From an uncultured Candidatus Saccharibacteria bacterium (GTDB lineage Bacteria > Patescibacteriota > Saccharimonadia > Saccharimonadales > JAGQNJ01), in assembly GCA_964491925.1 (NCBI GenBank), contig CAZBGZ010000002.1, forward strand, positions 49,492-113,491: a stretch of 64,000 nucleotides of DNA, given 5' to 3'. A program made the position numbers and the translations under genes. The notes under the pieces were generated by a model, which saw nothing but the letters and a program-made list of their open reading frames with translations, ran no database searches and was not told the origin of the DNA. Below, piece after piece: positions 8,721-39,277 of this stretch (positions are counted from its first letter, which is position 1; each line of letters opens with the position of its first letter).

Positions 8721-9875
8721 GTGGGCAACCATAAAAACAGTATAGAGTTAAATGGCAAGGTATATGATGTTGCTACTGGCCGTCAAATCAAACCTACCAT
8801 AACCCCACCTCAGGTAAAAAATCTGACAAATCAAAAACCCGTACATGCTAACAAAAAAGGGACAGTAATAGATGGTTTTGTCAGAAAACCAGTTCCAAGA
8901 AAAAATAATACTCAGCAAAAAACCTCAAAAAAACATACAACAGTTAAAAGTGGTCAAATTCACACACCTTCACTTGCCAATAACGTAGGGCTACACCTCC
9001 AGAAATCTAGAACACTGATGCGCGAAGCGGTCAAAAAACCAAGTACAAAGAACCTTGAAAAAAATAGATTAATTGCAAAACACGAAAAAGAAAGACTACA
9101 GCGAGCCCAAAGAGTCAAAAAAAGTAATAAAATCAAACGATTCGTATCGCCACTGCATAGCAGCACGCGGAATATTACAGAAAAAGCCCAACACAATAGT
9201 ACGAAAAAAGATAAAGCTCTCGAAAACAGAAATGTGTATAAAAATGACTCTTACTTGGCTGCCATTTCGCCAATCAACCAAAAAGTAGCAAGTCCAGTCA
9301 AGCCGCACCCAAAAACAGAAGAGGTGATAGCAAATGCTATGCTGAACTCAAACAGTCACCAAGCTAAAAAGGATCGTCCAGTAAAACCAAAACACAGACT
9401 TGCTCGTAATCTAGGACTTAGCAGAAAAGCCACAAACGTGGCCCTAACTGCATTGACGATTATCATTTTGGGTGGTTTTGTTCTGTATCAAAATATTCCC
9501 AATCTGAGTATGCGGATAGCCTCAAGCCGCGCAGGCTTTAGCGCCAACATGCCCGCCTATAAACCATCCGGATTTACAATGTCAGGGCCGATAGAGTATG
9601 GGCCTGGGAAAGTAAAAATATCTTTTAGTTCAAATAGTGACCAGAGAAGTTTTAGCCTTACCCAACAAGTATCCAACTGGAATAGTTCAGCTCTGGTTGA
9701 TAATTATATGGTAGCCAGCAATAAGCAGTTCCAAACGTTAGATGATAACGGCAAGACTATTTATATATATGATTCGAGCAATGCAACGTGGGTTAGCGGG
9801 GGTGTTTGGTACCAAATCGAAGGCAACTCTAGCCTCAACAGTGACCAATTGTTAAAAATAGCCAACAGTATCTAG
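8721..9875 (+). CDS. hypothetical single-pass membrane protein (basic N-terminal half, extracytoplasmic C-terminal domain)
   Basis: 384 aa, GTG start; Lys/Arg-rich first 230 aa, one TM (ALTALTIIILGGFVLY), then a ~130-aa globular tail. Confidence 0.5.
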   Translation: MGNHKNSIELNGKVYDVATGRQIKPTITPPQVKNLTNQKPVHANKKGTVIDGFVRKPVPRKNNTQQKTSKKHTTVKSGQIHTPSLANNVGLHLQKSRTLMREAVKKPSTKNLEKNRLIAKHEKERLQRAQRVKKSNKIKRFVSPLHSSTRNITEKAQHNSTKKDKALENRNVYKNDSYLAAISPINQKVASPVKPHPKTEEVIANAMLNSNSHQAKKDRPVKPKHRLARNLGLSRKATNVALTALTIIILGGFVLYQNIPNLSMRIASSRAGFSANMPAYKPSGFTMSGPIEYGPGKVKISFSSNSDQRSFSLTQQVSNWNSSALVDNYMVASNKQFQTLDDNGKTIYIYDSSNATWVSGGVWYQIEGNSSLNSDQLLKIANSI

Positions 9876-14726: not shown

Positions 14727-15533
14727 TTAGGAAGCTTGTCTATCGAGTTGAGCGTTGTATTCTTGCAGTGAGCTAGAGAACCCTTGCGAATAACCCGCCT
14801 GGACTAAGTCGTCTACAACCCCAGAAACATTACCGTTGCCAACCCGAAAGCCCATACCAACAGCACCGGCGTTCACAAAGTCTACGATACTTCTATCGTC
14901 GTAGTTGTCAGGATAGTCCTCGGGCTGTGGGTAGTCCTGCGGATCGCGCATTACTACAAAAGGGGAAGTATCACTTGCTTGCATAATCGTTACAGTCTCC
15001 CCCTGAGTTAGCGCTAGATCCCGCGCACCAGATTTCGTAAAAGCTGACATGTTATCTGGGTCCAACGTTGCATTATTAGGCTCATTTGTCAGCTCTATCC
15101 ATGATAGAGACTTTGGCCCACTATCTTTATCGGTGTCTGTATCCCAGTAGCCAGCCCATGTTCGACCTTCTTCATCGTGCAGTAAATAAGGCCGTACTAT
15201 TAATAGCTGCTGGTCATCAGGTATATTTTGAGCACGGTTAGTGTTTTCACTTTGGCCCTGTACTCTCACTGGCGTTTTTCTTGGGTTAACCATATCACCA
15301 GCTTTTAGAACACCAGGGAAAACCTCCAAACGACCACCGTTTTTTAACTTGTCCACAAATGCATCTTCACGTTTTTCACCTTCTTGGCGTGCATCATCAT
15401 TGGGGTTGCCACATGCGGCCAGAACACCAGAGCCAACAGCAACAATGACGCCCGAAGCTACTAGACCTTTTAGTAATCTTCTCCTAGTTGGGTCAACTGA
15501 CTCTGGTTGTTCTGTTCGATTAAATCTATTCAT
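14727..15533 (-). CDS. putative exported lipoprotein with twin-arginine-like signal
   Basis: 268 aa; N-terminus DPTRRRLLKGLVASGVIVAVGSGVLAAC has an RR motif, a hydrophobic core and a lipobox-like LAAC. Confidence 0.6.
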   Translation of the reverse strand: MNRFNRTEQPESVDPTRRRLLKGLVASGVIVAVGSGVLAACGNPNDDARQEGEKREDAFVDKLKNGGRLEVFPGVLKAGDMVNPRKTPVRVQGQSENTNRAQNIPDDQQLLIVRPYLLHDEEGRTWAGYWDTDTDKDSGPKSLSWIELTNEPNNATLDPDNMSAFTKSGARDLALTQGETVTIMQASDTSPFVVMRDPQDYPQPEDYPDNYDDRSIVDFVNAGAVGMGFRVGNGNVSGVVDDLVQAGYSQGFSSSLQEYNAQLDRQAS

Positions 15534-15656
15534 TATGATCTAATTTATTCTAATCCAGAATATTATACAGTTTTATACAAATATGTCAATACCGTGCAAT
15601 CGTATCAACATCTACGTGTTGAAAAATCACCGTAATTCCTGAACAAACAAGATTTC

Positions 15657-22809: not shown

Positions 22810-22850
22810 TATTTCAATCATATACCGCTGTTGTCAATATTAGTTACCTC

Positions 22851-22870: not shown

Positions 22871-24340
22871 ATGAGTAAATCTAAAGTTCCGATTGTAGCT
22901 ATTGTTGGGCGTGCCAATGTTGGCAAGTCTAGTATTTTTAATAGTATTCTGCGTCGGCGCGAAGCGATAGTAGCCAATGAGCCGGGGACGACACGCGATA
23001 GCATATCTGCAAAGGCCCAGTGGGAAGAACACGATTTTTGGCTAGTTGATACTGCCGGTATGAAAGATCCCGAAGACGATTTTGAATTTACTATACAAGA
23101 GCAGATACAGCAGGCAGCTGAAAGCGCTGATATCATCTGGGTTGTTATCGAGGCAGATGCCGCCATAACAGATGAAGACAGGCGAGTAGCTAAGCAGGCA
23201 CTAAAAACCAGAAAACCTGTTTTTCTAGTCGTTAATAAGGCCGACAAAAAACCAAAGGCGCACACATCTGACTATCAACGCCTAGGCATCAAAGATATAT
23301 TCCTAACATCTGCTACCCAAAATCGTGGCATTCCTGCGATGTTAGATGTTTTGATAGAACGCATACCTAAAACCACAATTACTAACGACCCGGACCGTAT
23401 TACAGTTGCATTGCTAGGACGTCCAAACGTTGGTAAATCTTATCTATTTAATACTCTTGCCAAGAAACAACAGGCAATTGTTGCAGATGTGGCTGGTACC
23501 ACGCGTGATATCAATCGTGCAACCGTAAAATACATGAAAAAAGAGATTGAACTACTAGACACGGCTGGGATTCGTCGAAGTGGCAAAATAGAGCATGGTA
23601 TTGAAAAGTTCAGCGTTATCCGCACCCTCGCGGCCATAGAACAGTCTGACGTGTGTTTCTTGCTGATGGATGCTGGCGAGCTGAACACGTCACTAGACCA
23701 AAAAATAGCTGGCATGATAAAAGAATCAGGCAAGGGGCTGGTATTGGTTGTCAGTAAATGGGATACTCTAGAATCCGTACGTGGGCGCGCCGAACAAGCA
23801 GAAGAAAGAAAAAAGGCCAAACAAGAAGCAGCCCTAAAACAAAAAAGTTTAACAAAACAAGAAAAGAAAAAACTTTCAAAGTCTATCAGCTACGACAAGC
23901 ACGGTGTTATAAATAAGGACGCTTTTACTCGTGATGCGATAGCTCCACAAATCCAGGCTAACTTCTTATTCGTGCCTTGGGCATCGCTAATATTTACCAG
24001 CAGTGTCACTGGTCAAAATGTCACAAAATTATTCGATCTTGCCCAAAATATCGTGAATTCTCGACACACTCTGATAAAAACACCTCTCTTGAACCGTTGG
24101 TTGCAAGATGTCACTGACCAGCACCCGCCAGCTGGCCTAAAAAATAAAACGCCGAAGCTAAACTACATTATTCAGGAAGCCGAAAGCCCAACAAACTTCC
24201 AGGTATACGGGCGTGATACAAAGTTTCTACACTGGAGTTACAAACGATTTATGGAGCGCAAACTACGTGAAAAATATGGCTTTGAAGGTACCCCAGTAAA
24301 ATTCTGGTTCTTCGACAGCCGCGACAACACAAAAAATTAG
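22871..24340 (+). CDS. der: ribosome-biogenesis GTPase Der (EngA)
   Basis: 489 aa; two P-loops (GRANVGKSS and GRPNVGKSY), two DTAG motifs, NKAD and SKWD, KH-like tail. A Lys/Glu-rich insertion sits before the KH domain. Confidence 0.9.
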   Translation: MSKSKVPIVAIVGRANVGKSSIFNSILRRREAIVANEPGTTRDSISAKAQWEEHDFWLVDTAGMKDPEDDFEFTIQEQIQQAAESADIIWVVIEADAAITDEDRRVAKQALKTRKPVFLVVNKADKKPKAHTSDYQRLGIKDIFLTSATQNRGIPAMLDVLIERIPKTTITNDPDRITVALLGRPNVGKSYLFNTLAKKQQAIVADVAGTTRDINRATVKYMKKEIELLDTAGIRRSGKIEHGIEKFSVIRTLAAIEQSDVCFLLMDAGELNTSLDQKIAGMIKESGKGLVLVVSKWDTLESVRGRAEQAEERKKAKQEAALKQKSLTKQEKKKLSKSISYDKHGVINKDAFTRDAIAPQIQANFLFVPWASLIFTSSVTGQNVTKLFDLAQNIVNSRHTLIKTPLLNRWLQDVTDQHPPAGLKNKTPKLNYIIQEAESPTNFQVYGRDTKFLHWSYKRFMERKLREKYGFEGTPVKFWFFDSRDNTKN

Positions 24341-24380: not shown

Positions 24381-25049
24381 ATGGGTTTATTCACTAGGCG
24401 AACATCAGAGGAGATGGGACAACCGTATTATGAAATCACCAGCAACCCTCAGACTGGTTCTTCTTTGGTATCGAAAAATACAGTGCTTCTAGTAGGCCTG
24501 GGCAACGTTGGCAAAAAATACGACGGAACACGTCACAATATTGGTTTCGAGTGTATTGATGCGTTCGTAGAGGGGCAGGGATTCCCAGCCTGGACAGAAA
24601 AAAAGAACCTAAAATGCCTGGTTACAAAACACACAGTCGGCAAACTGCAGATTATTGCTATCAAACCGACAACCTATATGAACGAAAGTGGGCAAGCAGT
24701 TACTGCGGTTCAGCGGTTTTTCAAAGTTAATAATGCATGCACTATAGTAATCCACGATGATATCGATGTAGCTTTTGGCCAAATCCGTACCAGGATTGGT
24801 GGTGGATCTGCCGGAAATAACGGGATAAAATCATTGATAGCGCACATCGGTGAAGATTTTGGACGAATCCGTATCGGGGTGAAAAATAATCTATTAGAAA
24901 AAATGGGTAGTGCCGATTTTGTGTTGGCTAAATTCAACAAAGAAGAACAATCACAGATGATAAAACTAAAAAGGGAAGTATCAGCACTAATCAGCGAATA
25001 TACCGCTAGTGGCGAGCTACCACACGACACCCGCAACTTCCTACTTTAA
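24381..25049 (+). CDS. pth: peptidyl-tRNA hydrolase
   Basis: 222 aa; LLVGLGNVGKKYDGTRHNIGF signature after a ~30-aa N-terminal extension. Confidence 0.9.
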   Translation: MGLFTRRTSEEMGQPYYEITSNPQTGSSLVSKNTVLLVGLGNVGKKYDGTRHNIGFECIDAFVEGQGFPAWTEKKNLKCLVTKHTVGKLQIIAIKPTTYMNESGQAVTAVQRFFKVNNACTIVIHDDIDVAFGQIRTRIGGGSAGNNGIKSLIAHIGEDFGRIRIGVKNNLLEKMGSADFVLAKFNKEEQSQMIKLKREVSALISEYTASGELPHDTRNFLL

Positions 25050-25056
25050 AAATACG

Positions 25057-25644
25057 TCACAATTTAATTGGTAATTTTAGGCTTCGTCCTCTGAAATCAA
25101 GCATTCTAAGCAACCGCTTGCCGTTACTTCTGCCAGCATGATGCACCATATCATAATGCACTCTTCGCTGATTAACTTTTCTCAAACCCTGGCGCAGAAA
25201 TATTACATCGCGCGGCCCGTATTCCCATAGTAAATGTGGCTCAACGTTAACACTTCCATCTTCCTCTAACAAAAAAGGTTGATTAGACGCTGCAAAAAAC
25301 GCTTTTTCCCCAAAAACTGGTATAACTAATGTTATCCCCTCGGGGCATTCCTCATCTTGATGAGATGAAAGAAGGAATCGAGAATCTTCCGCTGATTTAT
25401 ACCGAAATGCAGCGCCTAACATCATGCGAGAACGACCGTTGGGTTCAATATCCTTACGAACTATTTCCAACTCCGGTAGCACAGCAAGTATCCCTTGCGG
25501 GCTCATTGTCTCTAATCCCTGTTCAGCCAGAGTTTTTATTGAGTCTTCTGTAATCATTCCTGCGACCTTTGCCGCGCCTTGAATAACGCAAGCTTCCAGC
25601 ACTTCAGGACTATATTCATTAAATTGTGTCGAGAATGTGATCAT
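25057..25644 (-). CDS. hypothetical protein
   Basis: 195-aa ORF. Contains SHQD...HH (HxD...H-like) residues, but no family was recognised. Confidence 0.5.
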   Translation of the reverse strand: MITFSTQFNEYSPEVLEACVIQGAAKVAGMITEDSIKTLAEQGLETMSPQGILAVLPELEIVRKDIEPNGRSRMMLGAAFRYKSAEDSRFLLSSHQDEECPEGITLVIPVFGEKAFFAASNQPFLLEEDGSVNVEPHLLWEYGPRDVIFLRQGLRKVNQRRVHYDMVHHAGRSNGKRLLRMLDFRGRSLKLPIKL

Positions 25645-25787: not shown

Positions 25788-25827
25788 AAAAAGAGCCTCC
25801 AGAGGGGGTGGGCACCGCTGGAAGCTC
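25788..25827 (-). terminator. intrinsic terminator of the 25.8-26.2 kb RNA unit
   Basis: Minus strand GAGCTTCCAG, 15-nt loop, CTGGAGGCTC (10 bp with one G-U), followed by TTTTT (25792-25788). Confidence 0.6.
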
Positions 25828-26196
25828 ATTTCAGAGGACAAAGCTTGCGCCTTGTCCCCAATACCCTTCAACCCACCCCAGCGAAACATCAGCGCTAAAC
25901 GAATAGTAAAAGCCTGTGTCTGTTGCCCGTAAACGGGAAGCAATCATTTAGACTCGCTTTGAATTGGGGCCTTTTCAGTGTTTACGAGAAACCGCTGAAA
26001 AAGGTTGCTAGTTAAAGGGGTTAGTCTGTTTTAGAGCGTAGCCGTGTTCACGGCAGTGCTTTCAATAGTGGAGGGTAACAACTAGAAGGAAGCGCGCTCT
26101 AAAACAATCTAACTATTAACCCTGGATAACCCAAGGTAATGCTAGAATAGGGGGTATAAGGTACGATAAGCTTTAATAAATTAAAACTTACAGGTT
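25788..26196 (-). ncRNA. unclassified ~400-nt highly structured RNA (promoter-to-terminator unit lacking a long ORF)
   Basis: No ORF of 60 aa or more in any frame across 25645-26260. A strong promoter and a terminator bracket about 405 nt. Stems seen by eye are 26020-26038/26095-26113 (19 bp, 2 mismatches), 25970-25978/25995-26004, 25926-25937 and 25836-25857. Confidence 0.5.
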
Positions 26197-26199
26197 GCC

Positions 26200-26228
26200 A
26201 TTTTATCAAAAACATTTCATTATGTCAA
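26200..26228 (-). promoter_or_regulatory. near-consensus sigma70 promoter TTGACA-17-TGaTAAAAT
   Basis: Minus strand TATTGACATAATGAAATGTTTTTGATAAAATGGCAACC. -35 at 26228-26223, exact 17-nt spacer, extended -10 at 26208-26200. Confidence 0.6.
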
Positions 26229-26260: not shown

Positions 26261-27118
26261 ATGATTCAAAAACATAAACATAAGCAAATTCCGGTTCCTG
26301 GTATTCTGACCTCTGTTCCAGATGCCCCAGAAACGTTATTTTGTATAGGTGACACTCTGGATTATTTGCTCAAAAAACCGCGCATTGCCATTGTTGGATC
26401 GCGGAAAATGACCACCTATGGCCGTGGTATTACAGAGAAATTTTCTAGCGAATTAGCAGGCAAGGGTGTGGTGATAGTCAGTGGACTAGCATACGGAGTA
26501 GATGCTTGCGCACACCAAGCGGCTACTGATGCTGGCGGGGAGTGTATAGCGGTCTTAGCCTGTGGCTTAGAACAGATGTATCCCGCTGCAAACAGACTGC
26601 TGGCCAACAAACTAGTTGAAAGGGGTGGTGTGATTGTCTCCGAATACCCTAAAGGCACCGAGCCGCTAAGGCACCGTTTTTTAGAGAGAAATAGGATTAT
26701 TTCGGGGCTTGCTGATGCGGTGCTAATAACAGAGGCTGCCGAGCGCAGTGGAAGCCTAAATACCGCAGGCCACGCACTGAACCAAGGCAAACCAGTCCTG
26801 TGTGTACCAGGTAATATAACTAGCCCTTTGTCAGGCGGAACAAATAATTTGATTAAAAGTGGCGCTCACCTAGTTACTGACATTGACGACATTCTATCGA
26901 TTCTAGGACTCGACAAATCAAACCAGAGCACTATGCCCATAGCCCTAAACCAGGAAGAATTTATTTTATTGTCCCTGTTAAAAGACGGTGTTTCTGATGG
27001 CTCTGAATTAGCATGTAAAAGTGAGCTAAGCGCATCTATGTTCAACCAAACTCTAACTATGCTAGAAATCGAAGGTAAAATAAAACCTCTCGGCAACAAC
27101 CACTGGGCCATCCACTAG
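26261..27118 (+). CDS. dprA: DNA-processing protein DprA
   Basis: 285 aa; IAIVGSRKMTTYG...VSGLAYGVDACAH...RNRIISGL Rossmann-like DprA core. Confidence 0.9.
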   Translation: MIQKHKHKQIPVPGILTSVPDAPETLFCIGDTLDYLLKKPRIAIVGSRKMTTYGRGITEKFSSELAGKGVVIVSGLAYGVDACAHQAATDAGGECIAVLACGLEQMYPAANRLLANKLVERGGVIVSEYPKGTEPLRHRFLERNRIISGLADAVLITEAAERSGSLNTAGHALNQGKPVLCVPGNITSPLSGGTNNLIKSGAHLVTDIDDILSILGLDKSNQSTMPIALNQEEFILLSLLKDGVSDGSELACKSELSASMFNQTLTMLEIEGKIKPLGNNHWAIH

Positions 27119-33374: not shown

Positions 33375-33416
33375 GTCTTGATAGTTAACTGGTGGGCATA
33401 ATGGAGATATAGAATC

Positions 33417-33893
33417 ATGATTAAAACCATCAAACTACTCCTTGTATCAGTAATGACCTTTTTGACTTTTACTATGGCTGGCTTTTCGGTGCCTCGAGTA
33501 GCAGCAGCTGCAACCGCAGAATCATACCCAAATCGAAGAGCTAGACATATAGAGTGGCATAATCAAGGTGGACCAAAGACATCCAACAGGATTACCACAA
33601 CTCGTAGTATTGACGGCCATGGCTGGATTTGTGTTGACGCCAACTTTGATGATGGCCCATTTGATGTCTTGACGCGTTATCACTGGTACATAGAGGAATA
33701 TGTTCCTGGAAGAGGTTGGGTCGAACAGCGACAATCAACAGAGTACAACGCGAATGGCAACCTGGATCATGCTTGCTACGACAATAAAATTGAAATCGGG
33801 AAAACCTACCGCGTTTTATTCGATCCCACACGCTCCACTTACATGGAAGGCACTTTCCACGTTTACGGCTATTTCATAAACTATCCGAATTAG
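33417..33893 (+). CDS. small secreted two-cysteine protein, paralog B
   Basis: 158 aa; signal peptide ending AAAATA. Core GWICVD...YHWYIEE...GW...ANGNLDHAC...LFD aligns with 17939..18445. Confidence 0.6.
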   Translation: MIKTIKLLLVSVMTFLTFTMAGFSVPRVAAAATAESYPNRRARHIEWHNQGGPKTSNRITTTRSIDGHGWICVDANFDDGPFDVLTRYHWYIEEYVPGRGWVEQRQSTEYNANGNLDHACYDNKIEIGKTYRVLFDPTRSTYMEGTFHVYGYFINYPN

Positions 33894-38623: not shown

Positions 38624-38805
38624 AATTAAACAGAACATTTTGCGAACATGAATATGTGCGTGGACTCCGGGTAGTGGAAGCTATTATTTATAGATAACGT
38701 AACATCACAAAGACAACAGGCAACCTAAAACTAGATCTAAAATTTAGCAAAAATAATGAGACAAACAGTGAAGTAGAGAGAGCAGTACAAAAAGATATAG
38801 ATACT

Positions 38806-38833
38806 ATGTCGCACAATGTATATTTTGCGACGT
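38806..38833. other. dif-like Xer recombination site candidate
   Basis: TATGTCGCACAA-TGTATA-TTTTGCGACGT. Arms are a near-perfect inverted repeat (GTCGCAcAA / TTtTGCGAC). The 18-nt core CGCACAATGTATATTTTG matches E. coli dif CGCATAATGTATATTATG at 16/18 (dif recalled from memory). Confidence 0.35.
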
Positions 38834-39277
38834 TCTATTATTATAGATAGATGATTAACCATACCTCGCCTAACAGGGGAGTTTTTGCGTTTTTGGCACA
38901 TTGGATTGTTTTTGATGATAGTTCGCTCTCAGCATGCTCTTAGAGTTATATAGCTCTTTGTATGCCTGCGTGCGTGTGACTATACTCACATATCCACTAA
39001 TAGTTTTCCACAACAATAAATTTGCTTTTTCACTATTTTGAGTCTATTGTTATGTTTTTTACTATGTTCCCTGCACTTGTGATCATTTCACGAAAATTTG
39101 ACATTTCACGTTTTCGATATTGTTTATATGTTTTTTCAAAACAGCTTATCGTTTTAAAACGTGAACAAAATAAGAACTAGAGGGGTAGAGTAGGAAGAAT
39201 CTATGTATACCCGTAAACCAACTACTACGCAATATTTAGACTCGCGGGCCTGCTAATTTTTAACGTCAAAAAAATTA

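Follow-up and report, generated by a model that had tools for sequence, protein, structure and literature searches.

The minus strand of a 64,000-nucleotide (nt) stretch of contig CAZBGZ010000002.1, from an uncultured Candidatus Saccharibacteria bacterium (the whole stretch is hereafter called the window), carries at positions 25788 to 26193 what we consider, with a probability of roughly 85%, to be a stand-alone gene for a structured non-coding RNA of an uncatalogued Saccharibacteria family. The gene occupies a gap next to dprA, where a sequence-only reading of the window had described an orphan RNA gene. That description was right in that the RNA is unclassified and has no Rfam family; however, the RNA is not a singleton but a member of a widespread family, and the unit of promoter, RNA and terminator recurs, with compensatory base changes, in more than 120 independent sequences. 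Judged from the sequences sampled, the family is restricted to Candidatus Saccharibacteria (TM7, candidate phyla radiation). Full-text searches of the literature found no description of this RNA.

Promoter, terminator and coding potential

The predicted promoter (26200-26228, minus strand, as are all RNA elements described below) consists of a -35 element, TTGACA (26228-26223), a 17-nt spacer and a TG-extended -10 element, TGaTAAAAT (26208-26200), all of them where the sequence-only reading had placed them. In a scan of the window against the sigma-70 consensus, this site scores 11 of 12 plus the extended -10 TG and is among the three best matches in 64 kb. It had been called the strongest promoter in the window, which overstated its rank: a 12/12 site, TTGACA-16-TATAAT, is found at 15556-15589 on the minus strand, just upstream of a 268-amino-acid (aa) open reading frame (ORF; 14727-15533, minus strand), and a second site scoring 11/12 with TG is located at 22831 on the plus strand.

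From this promoter, a transcript of about 405 nt is predicted, with a 5' end about 7 nt past the -10 element (± 3 nt) and a 3' end at the U-tract of an intrinsic terminator (25788-25827). The terminator, also correctly read beforehand, comprises a 10-bp GC-rich stem (25827-25818 / 25802-25793), a 15-nt loop and UUUUU. Our terminator scanner missed it solely because the scanner limits loops to 8 nt. Within the loop lies the invariant 9-nt sequence UGCCCACCC (25814-25806), closed by the covarying pair G25815:C25805.

The gap next to dprA contains no ORF of 60 aa or more, the longest being 58 aa, and the RNA is not AT-rich (45.5% GC compared to 42.5% for the window); both points agree with the earlier description. 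The minimum free energy (MFE) of the RNA is -141.9 kcal/mol, compared to a mean of -110.7 ± 6.0 kcal/mol for 100 dinucleotide shuffles (z = -5.2), none of which was as stable. Elsewhere in the window, a 654-bp gap at 38624-39277 has no ORF longer than 54 aa; it is AT-rich (34% GC) and resembles ordinary intergenic DNA, unlike the RNA locus.

Homologs and covariation

The closest DprA relatives among GTDB species representatives belong to metagenome-assembled genomes (MAGs) of Candidatus Saccharibacteria (72-75% identity). The region upstream of dprA in loci L001-L005 aligns to the window RNA (nhmmer E-values of 1e-50 to 3e-37), and a more distant Saccharibacterium, L014 (38% DprA identity), carries a copy that is shorter, at about 270 nt. 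Homologs upstream of dprA were thus detected in six Saccharibacteria MAGs, with E-values from 1e-50 to 8e-06. We then searched metagenomes with a pattern made of two invariant blocks, TACCCTCCACT-N25-55-ACTAAYCCCTTTAAC, and obtained at least 120 matching stretches from soil, rhizosphere, groundwater and other assembled metagenomes. Anchored extraction yielded 96 unique full-length copies of 249-452 nt, all with a promoter and a terminator. The copies are diverse: the 100 that were aligned form 76 clusters at 80% identity and have a median pairwise identity of 40%, and no other copy is more than 58% identical to that of the window. The invariant motifs never co-occur in 68 dprA loci from outside the Saccharibacteria, including four other lineages of the candidate phyla radiation, and there was no match to the RNA in plasmids. 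In the window, the RNA is present as one copy only.

The transcription signals, from which we infer that the gene is transcribed, are conserved along with the RNA. Of the 96 unique homologs, 83 have TTGACA as the -35 element and 13 have TTGACT; 92 have a 17-nt spacer, 95 carry the TG extension, and the -10 element fits TAnnAT. A T-run of 4-7 closes 90 of the 96.

We tested 42 base pairs for covariation in the 100 aligned sequences, using as controls 500 column shuffles and alignments in which the 3' partners were slid by 1-3 columns. Standard pairing was observed in 96.4% of cells, compared to 84.6% in the shuffles, and the covariation score was 0.363 as opposed to 0.136. Nineteen of the 42 pairs change on both sides, and no shuffle attained any of the observed covariation values (0/500). 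When the 3' partners were slid, pairing fell to 34-54% of cells. A comparison of syntenic relatives had been suggested as a check on the sequence-only reading, and its outcome is favorable: together with the folding energy and the conserved promoter and terminator, the covariation points to a structured non-coding RNA that is independently transcribed, as had been proposed.

A conserved core and a variable periphery

In our model, the RNA folds into a 5' hairpin (P1), a single-stranded block (J1/2), a long stem (P2) closing a three-way element, a helix (P3) that stacks on P2 and encloses a variable domain, and the terminator hairpin. P1 (26166-26191) is formed by GUAAGUUUUAA and UUAAAGCUUAU; in 99% of the 96 homologs, the corresponding stretch (~34 nt) makes 6 or more pairs despite differences in sequence, with a median z of -3.3. 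J1/2 (26141-26165, CGUACCUUAUACCCCCUAUUCUAGC) is conserved and mostly single-stranded, with a mean unpaired probability of 0.57.

P2 (26020-26113) pairs GUUAG-AU-UGUUUUAGAGCG (26113-26095) with CGCUCUAAAACA-GA-CUAAC (26038-26020). The sequence-only reading had already identified this stem as closing a three-way element. The stem is indeed present and paired, but its exact 19-bp sequence is not conserved and covaries among subfamilies. Its base, GUUAG/CUAAY, is invariant and is followed by an R.A/U.N internal loop and then by nine pairs that vary on both sides among subfamilies, in which the 5' strand may read UGUUUUAGAG, UGCGCGCAAU, UGCUGGUCUA or UACAUACAC. Overall, both partners vary in 9 of 14 P2 pairs, and pairing is kept in 97.6% of cells across the 100 sequences. 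Two hairpins lie within the element. P2a (26066-26084) is short and has an invariant loop, UGUUACCCUCC (26080-26070), which carries the C-rich sequence UACCCUCC and has an unpaired probability of 0.93. P2b (26041-26054, GCCGU / ACGGC) is variable and is replaced in homologs by a hairpin of another sequence or length, or by none.

The 5' strand of P3, CCCUUUAACU (26010-26019), directly abuts P2, no linker intervening, and belongs to the invariant sequence ACUAAYCCCUUUAAC. Its partner, GGUUGAAGGG (25873-25864), belongs to a G-rich strand, GGGGUGGGUUGAAGGG (25864-25879). The pairing of CCCUUUAACY with GGUUGAAGGG is predicted by RNAalifold, with 98.2% of cells paired, and is invariant apart from a change of U:G to U:A. 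The remaining GGGG of the G-rich strand (~25879-25876) pairs with CCCC (~25969-25966) to form P3.1, in which an exchange of G:C for C:G is seen; the P3.1 loop varies by subfamily between 3 nt (short forms) and more than 100 nt (long forms). The variable 3' domain enclosed by P3 (25880-26009) contains hairpins at 26003-25970, 25959-25938 and 25937-25926 and a helix at 25921-25911 / 25896-25884. Compensatory changes occur here in close relatives, in which further helices become apparent, and the domain contains a conserved helix; one pair (columns 500/563 of alignment A3) covaries from A:U to G:C family-wide. An optional hairpin, GGGGACAAGGC / GCUUUGUCCUC (25834-25859), is absent from L002-L004 and from most homologs. 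In the terminator stem, all nine of nine pairs covary. The pair closing the UGCCCACCC loop is G:C in 56 copies and A:U in 44, and the loop itself has an unpaired probability of 0.85; the mean for the whole RNA is 0.36.

Five blocks are invariant or nearly so: ACCUUAUA(CCCCC), UACCCUCCACU, ACUAAYCCCUUUAAC, GGGUGGGUUGAAGGG and UGCCCACCC. The first of these, ACCUUAUA in J1/2, is invariant or nearly so in 100 homologs, and UACCCUCCACU in the P2a loop is identical in 100 of 100. Around the five blocks, lineage-specific hairpins enlarge the periphery, taking the RNA from about 250 to 450 nt.

Some segments have more than one candidate partner. A variable hairpin, Px (26108-26146), can form when UCUAGC (26146-26141) pairs with GUUAGA (26113-26108); it encloses ACCUUGG / CCAGGGU (26137-26131 / 26125-26119). 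The closing pairs of Px are standard in about 90% of homologs, and insertions of 0-80 nt are found at its tip. GUUAG thus has two conserved candidate partners, the downstream CUAAY at the base of P2 and the upstream UCUAAC of Px, and since both partner strands are nearly invariant, covariation cannot choose between them. In the MFE structure of the window copy, J1/2 (26141-26165) pairs with the G-rich strand (25861-25882) in place of P3. Among the MFE folds of 100 homologs, this pairing appears in 43 and P3 in 54; the two are nearly isoenergetic, with a median energy difference of -0.6 kcal/mol. The pairing level between J1/2 and the G-rich strand is 80.8%, compared to 81.5% in column shuffles, and the pairing is lost in L001-L003. 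Our data do not support it as a conserved helix; a two-state conformational switch is possible.

We also considered a pseudoknot between CCCACCC of the terminator loop and GGGUGGG. Both strands are invariant, hence no covariation is possible, and the G-run is already paired in cis in P3.1 and P3. L104 and L194 alter the G-run while the loop is unaltered, and the pseudoknot is not supported.

Possible function of the RNA

We tentatively suggest, at well under even odds, that this RNA may work in trans through its exposed C-rich loops. The RNA would be abundant, and its rigid scaffold would display invariant unpaired C-rich elements, namely the UACCCUCC loop, the UGCCCACCC loop and UACCCCC, which is present in 97% of copies. 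These elements would capture either a stretch of G-rich RNA or an RNA-binding protein specific for C, and the RNA would regulate or sequester the bound partner. Precedents exist for both kinds of partner: RNA for 6C and RoxS/RsaE, and protein for CsrB and 6S.

Several observations weigh against this suggestion. Complements of the C-rich motifs showed no enrichment in some 0.9 Mb of Saccharibacteria loci, those in the window were no better than chance, and no target or partner was identified in these searches. The C-run of J1/2 is missing in L001-L003, the only copies that lack it. Among 57 window ORFs of at least 120 aa (longest-ORF starts, uncurated), 8 have a Shine-Dalgarno-like motif (GGAG, GAGG or AGGA at -22 to -3). 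This suggests low Shine-Dalgarno usage in the organism, and the scarcity of such motifs argues against general anti-Shine-Dalgarno mimicry. Invariant blocks 9-16 nt long across a phylum are more typical of ribonucleoprotein (RNP) or ribozyme cores than of base-pairing small RNAs.

Two sites in the window are complementary to the terminator loop UGCCCACC. The sequences GUGGGCA and GGUGGGCA occur in the translation-initiation regions of the ORFs at 8721-9875(+) and 33417-33893(+), and the corresponding duplexes, at 8721-8760 and 33385-33420, have predicted energies of -22.9 and -18.4 kcal/mol. The count of such sites is within chance expectation.

A different possibility, which we rank only a little lower, is that the RNA is an RNP or ribozyme core, that is, a lineage-specific housekeeping RNA in which the invariant blocks make up tertiary contacts or an active site and do not serve as binding seeds. 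The presence of five invariant blocks in sequences that are otherwise about 40% identical speaks for this, as do linker-free helix stacking and a fixed core with an expanding periphery, as in the evolution of RNase P-like RNAs. In a genome of about 1 Mb, the RNA is moreover single-copy and keeps its syntenic position among housekeeping genes for translation and DNA, and its near-consensus promoter is conserved. However, we found no pseudoknot or tertiary pairing backed by covariation: the candidate pairing between the terminator loop and the G-rich strand is broken in two homologs without compensation, and its G-run is taken by P3.1. Nor is an associated protein gene evident in the neighborhood. 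A broader version holds that the RNA is an extra phylum-wide core RNA, either a compact, tertiary-folded RNP component or a ribozyme, without counterpart among the known universal RNAs. We consider this unlikely; such an RNA might be linked to the epibiotic way of life or to the translation machinery, which is unusual in the candidate phyla radiation.

That a genome of about 1 Mb has kept an RNA gene of 250-450 nt, complete with a near-perfect promoter, implies strong selection, and the RNA is conserved across a whole phylum of ultra-small, host-dependent bacteria. If it is a core RNA, it has been retained in genomes of about 1 Mb that shed most of their regulatory baggage. New classes of large structured RNA are rare, and several later proved to be ribozymes, RNP cores or RNA-only assemblies. 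An alignment of the copies would support a new covariance model and, with it, annotation of the gene in thousands of MAGs. According to a preprint on the TM7x transcriptome from 2022, no small RNA had yet been validated in that strain (10.1101/2022.03.25.485537). Saccharibacteria are now cultivable and naturally transformable (PMC10633639), and non-coding RNAs go unmentioned in that genetics paper; with cultivation and natural transformation available, the role of the RNA is directly testable.

Genomic context

The genes flanking the RNA in the window are housekeeping genes. On one side are der (22871-24340, plus strand) and pth (24381-25049, plus strand), followed by a 195-aa ORF (25057-25644, minus strand) directly downstream of the RNA. 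On the other side are dprA (26261-27118, plus strand) and, beyond it, a ROK kinase gene and then topA. Nearly all copies of the RNA lie between dprA-topA and pth-der. In the usual order, dprA and topA are transcribed away from the RNA gene, and pth, der and a pseudouridine synthase gene are transcribed towards it.

This arrangement bears on whether the RNA is instead a cis-acting element, which would act by promoter competition with dprA, by read-through antisense to pth-der or as the leader of the 195-aa ORF. In the window, about 32 nt separate the dprA start codon from the -35 element of the RNA; over 77 loci, the extrapolated median is 23 nt and 90% of distances are below 80 nt. Given so short a distance (~23-32 nt), the promoters of dprA and of the RNA must overlap back-to-back, and this could permit promoter competition. 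A weak, promoter-like site on the plus strand, TTGCCA-17-CATTAT (26195-26223), does overlap the RNA promoter, and in most loci convergent pth lies just past the terminator. However, promoter competition requires neither 250-450 nt of covarying structure nor invariant loops, and the RNA is unchanged where dprA is absent or elsewhere (L140, L151, L172, L177, L178, L187, L193 and L195). Read-through is opposed by strong terminators, with a GC-rich stem of 9-10 bp and a U-run of 4-7. As for a leader, most loci have convergent pth next after the RNA; only 6 of 127 have the co-oriented 195-aa ORF there, and in the window this ORF has a promoter-like site of its own (TAGAAA-18-TACAAT with TG, 25727-25698). 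Since the downstream neighbor is normally convergent, the RNA is not a 5' leader, and across the 127 loci we did not find it upstream of, and co-oriented with, a regulated gene in most genomes, as would be the case for a riboswitch or leader. We therefore think a cis-acting role improbable. The usual convergence of pth and the persistence of the RNA without dprA also speak for a stand-alone gene.

The 195-aa ORF has no Pfam or NCBIfam match. Weak relatives (30-35% identity) are found at the same position in five other loci only (L002, L003, L004, L150 and L178).

One copy of the RNA gene, with its promoter, is carried by an IMG/VR contig (L195:1-8444, IMGVR_UViG_3300049064_000004) on which dprA-topA do not adjoin it. 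Its neighbors there encode D12 and C5 DNA methyltransferases, an FtsK/PD-(D/E)XK protein, a RecT-like protein and KhpA. Either a mobile element has inserted next to the RNA gene, it seems, or a piece of chromosome was binned as viral. As this sole IMG/VR contig with the RNA resembles chromosomal DNA beside a mobile element and not a phage copy, we do not regard the RNA as virus-borne.

Comparison with known RNAs

A search of Rfam 15 gave no credible match to the window RNA, either at gathering thresholds or at E ≤ 10. The best hit was a plant microRNA precursor (25 bits, against a threshold of 90), which reflects only the long hairpin. There was no match, and no consistent weak hit, in 16 short homolog loci at E ≤ 5, and 147 kb of long homolog loci gave only tRNAs and noise at gathering thresholds.

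The sequence-only reading had looked in vain for hallmarks of RNase P, transfer-messenger RNA (tmRNA) and signal recognition particle (SRP) RNA, and wider searches bear it out; the Rfam models that it had named for checking (RF00010/RF00011, RF00023, RF00169 and RF00013) gave no hit to the RNA. For RNase P (RF00010/RF00011), there was no hit at E ≤ 10 in the window or at E ≤ 5 in the 16 homolog loci, and neither of the P4 motifs, CR-I (GGAAAGUCC) and CR-V (ACAGAAnnnGGCUUA), was present in any of 100 homologs, even with one mismatch. For tmRNA, ARAGORN reported only two tRNAs in the window and nothing in 100 homologs, the T-arm GGUUCRAnUCC was present in 0 of 100, RF00023 and the permuted forms had no hit over the RNA, and there was no conserved tag ORF. 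SRP RNA (RF00169/RF01854) gave no Rfam hit, and its helix-8 motif (domain IV, defined by a GNRA loop and AGCA/GGAA internal loops) was found exactly in 0 of 100 homologs and with a mismatch in 1 of 100. 6S RNA (RF00013) had no hit in the window or the 16 homolog loci. In addition, the separate 5' and 3' hairpins and the multi-way junctions leave neither a tmRNA-like acceptor stem nor a 6S-like closing rod.

It could be argued that the RNA is a universal RNA so divergent that standard models miss it. Its length and single-copy status would fit, and for one complete genome from the Saccharibacteria the NCBI pipeline reports only two non-coding RNAs (PMC8830319); one of the usual three might thus go undetected. 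On the other hand, another Saccharibacteria MAG is reported with four non-coding RNAs (PMC9302068). With every Rfam model for these RNAs silent in the window and in the 16 homolog loci, CR-I, CR-V and the T-arm absent in 100 of 100 homologs, helix 8 exact in none, ARAGORN negative, the two ends in separate hairpins and no conserved tag ORF, we judge this very improbable. The resemblance to RNase P, tmRNA, SRP and 6S RNAs is one of style: all are single-copy, phylum-wide RNAs that have a strong promoter of constitutive type and whose peripheral helices vary around a conserved core, but the defining motifs and folds of the universal RNAs are all missing here.

A small protein or a guide-type RNA of a mobile or CRISPR-like system has next to no chance of being the right explanation: the 38-codon ORF at 25947-25831, raised earlier as the only coding alternative, stops 3 nt short of the terminator, but 63 of 79 scorable homologs have no in-frame ATG for it, and its length ranges from 9 to 89 codons. 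Part of it lies in the optional hairpin, and close relatives have a deletion of 39 nt. Genes for Cas proteins, IscB, TnpB or Tas are absent from the window, as are spacers and repeat arrays, and the RNA is there in a single copy. The window copy does have GUUUUAGAGCG paired with its complement, a likeness to the crRNA:tracrRNA repeat/anti-repeat of Cas9 (GUUUUAGAGC...). We treat this likeness as coincidence because the P2 stem covaries freely among subfamilies, others of which have swapped it for unrelated, still-paired sequences.

Agreeing with no known family in any of these comparisons, the RNA is rated here as a new family within a familiar general category, that of lineage-specific structured non-coding RNAs. 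OLE, the raiA motif, ROOL, GOLLD and HEARO are the closest in kind. Like this RNA, they are hundreds of nucleotides long, have their own promoter and terminator, are lineage-restricted and combine many covarying helices with highly conserved unpaired nucleotides. The raiA motif, too, typically lies beside a competence gene (comFC). Their architecture is nevertheless different, and none of their covariance models matched the window or the 16 homolog loci; this RNA is 250-450 nt long and, among the sampled sequences, found only in Saccharibacteria.

The suggested action in trans has its nearest parallels in 6C RNA (Actinobacteria, RF01066) and RoxS/RsaE (Firmicutes). RNAs of this type gave no Rfam hit at E ≤ 10 in the window, and they are about 90-115 nt long with two or three simple hairpins, whereas this RNA is three to four times longer and has long-range helices. 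All three are nonetheless phylum- or order-wide and present invariant C-runs in hairpin loops or unpaired regions. The C-runs of 6C and RoxS/RsaE pair with G-rich sites in mRNAs, and exposed, conserved C-rich loops of the same kind are present here (UACCCUCC and UGCCCACCC), a resemblance that is functional and not a mark of membership in either family.

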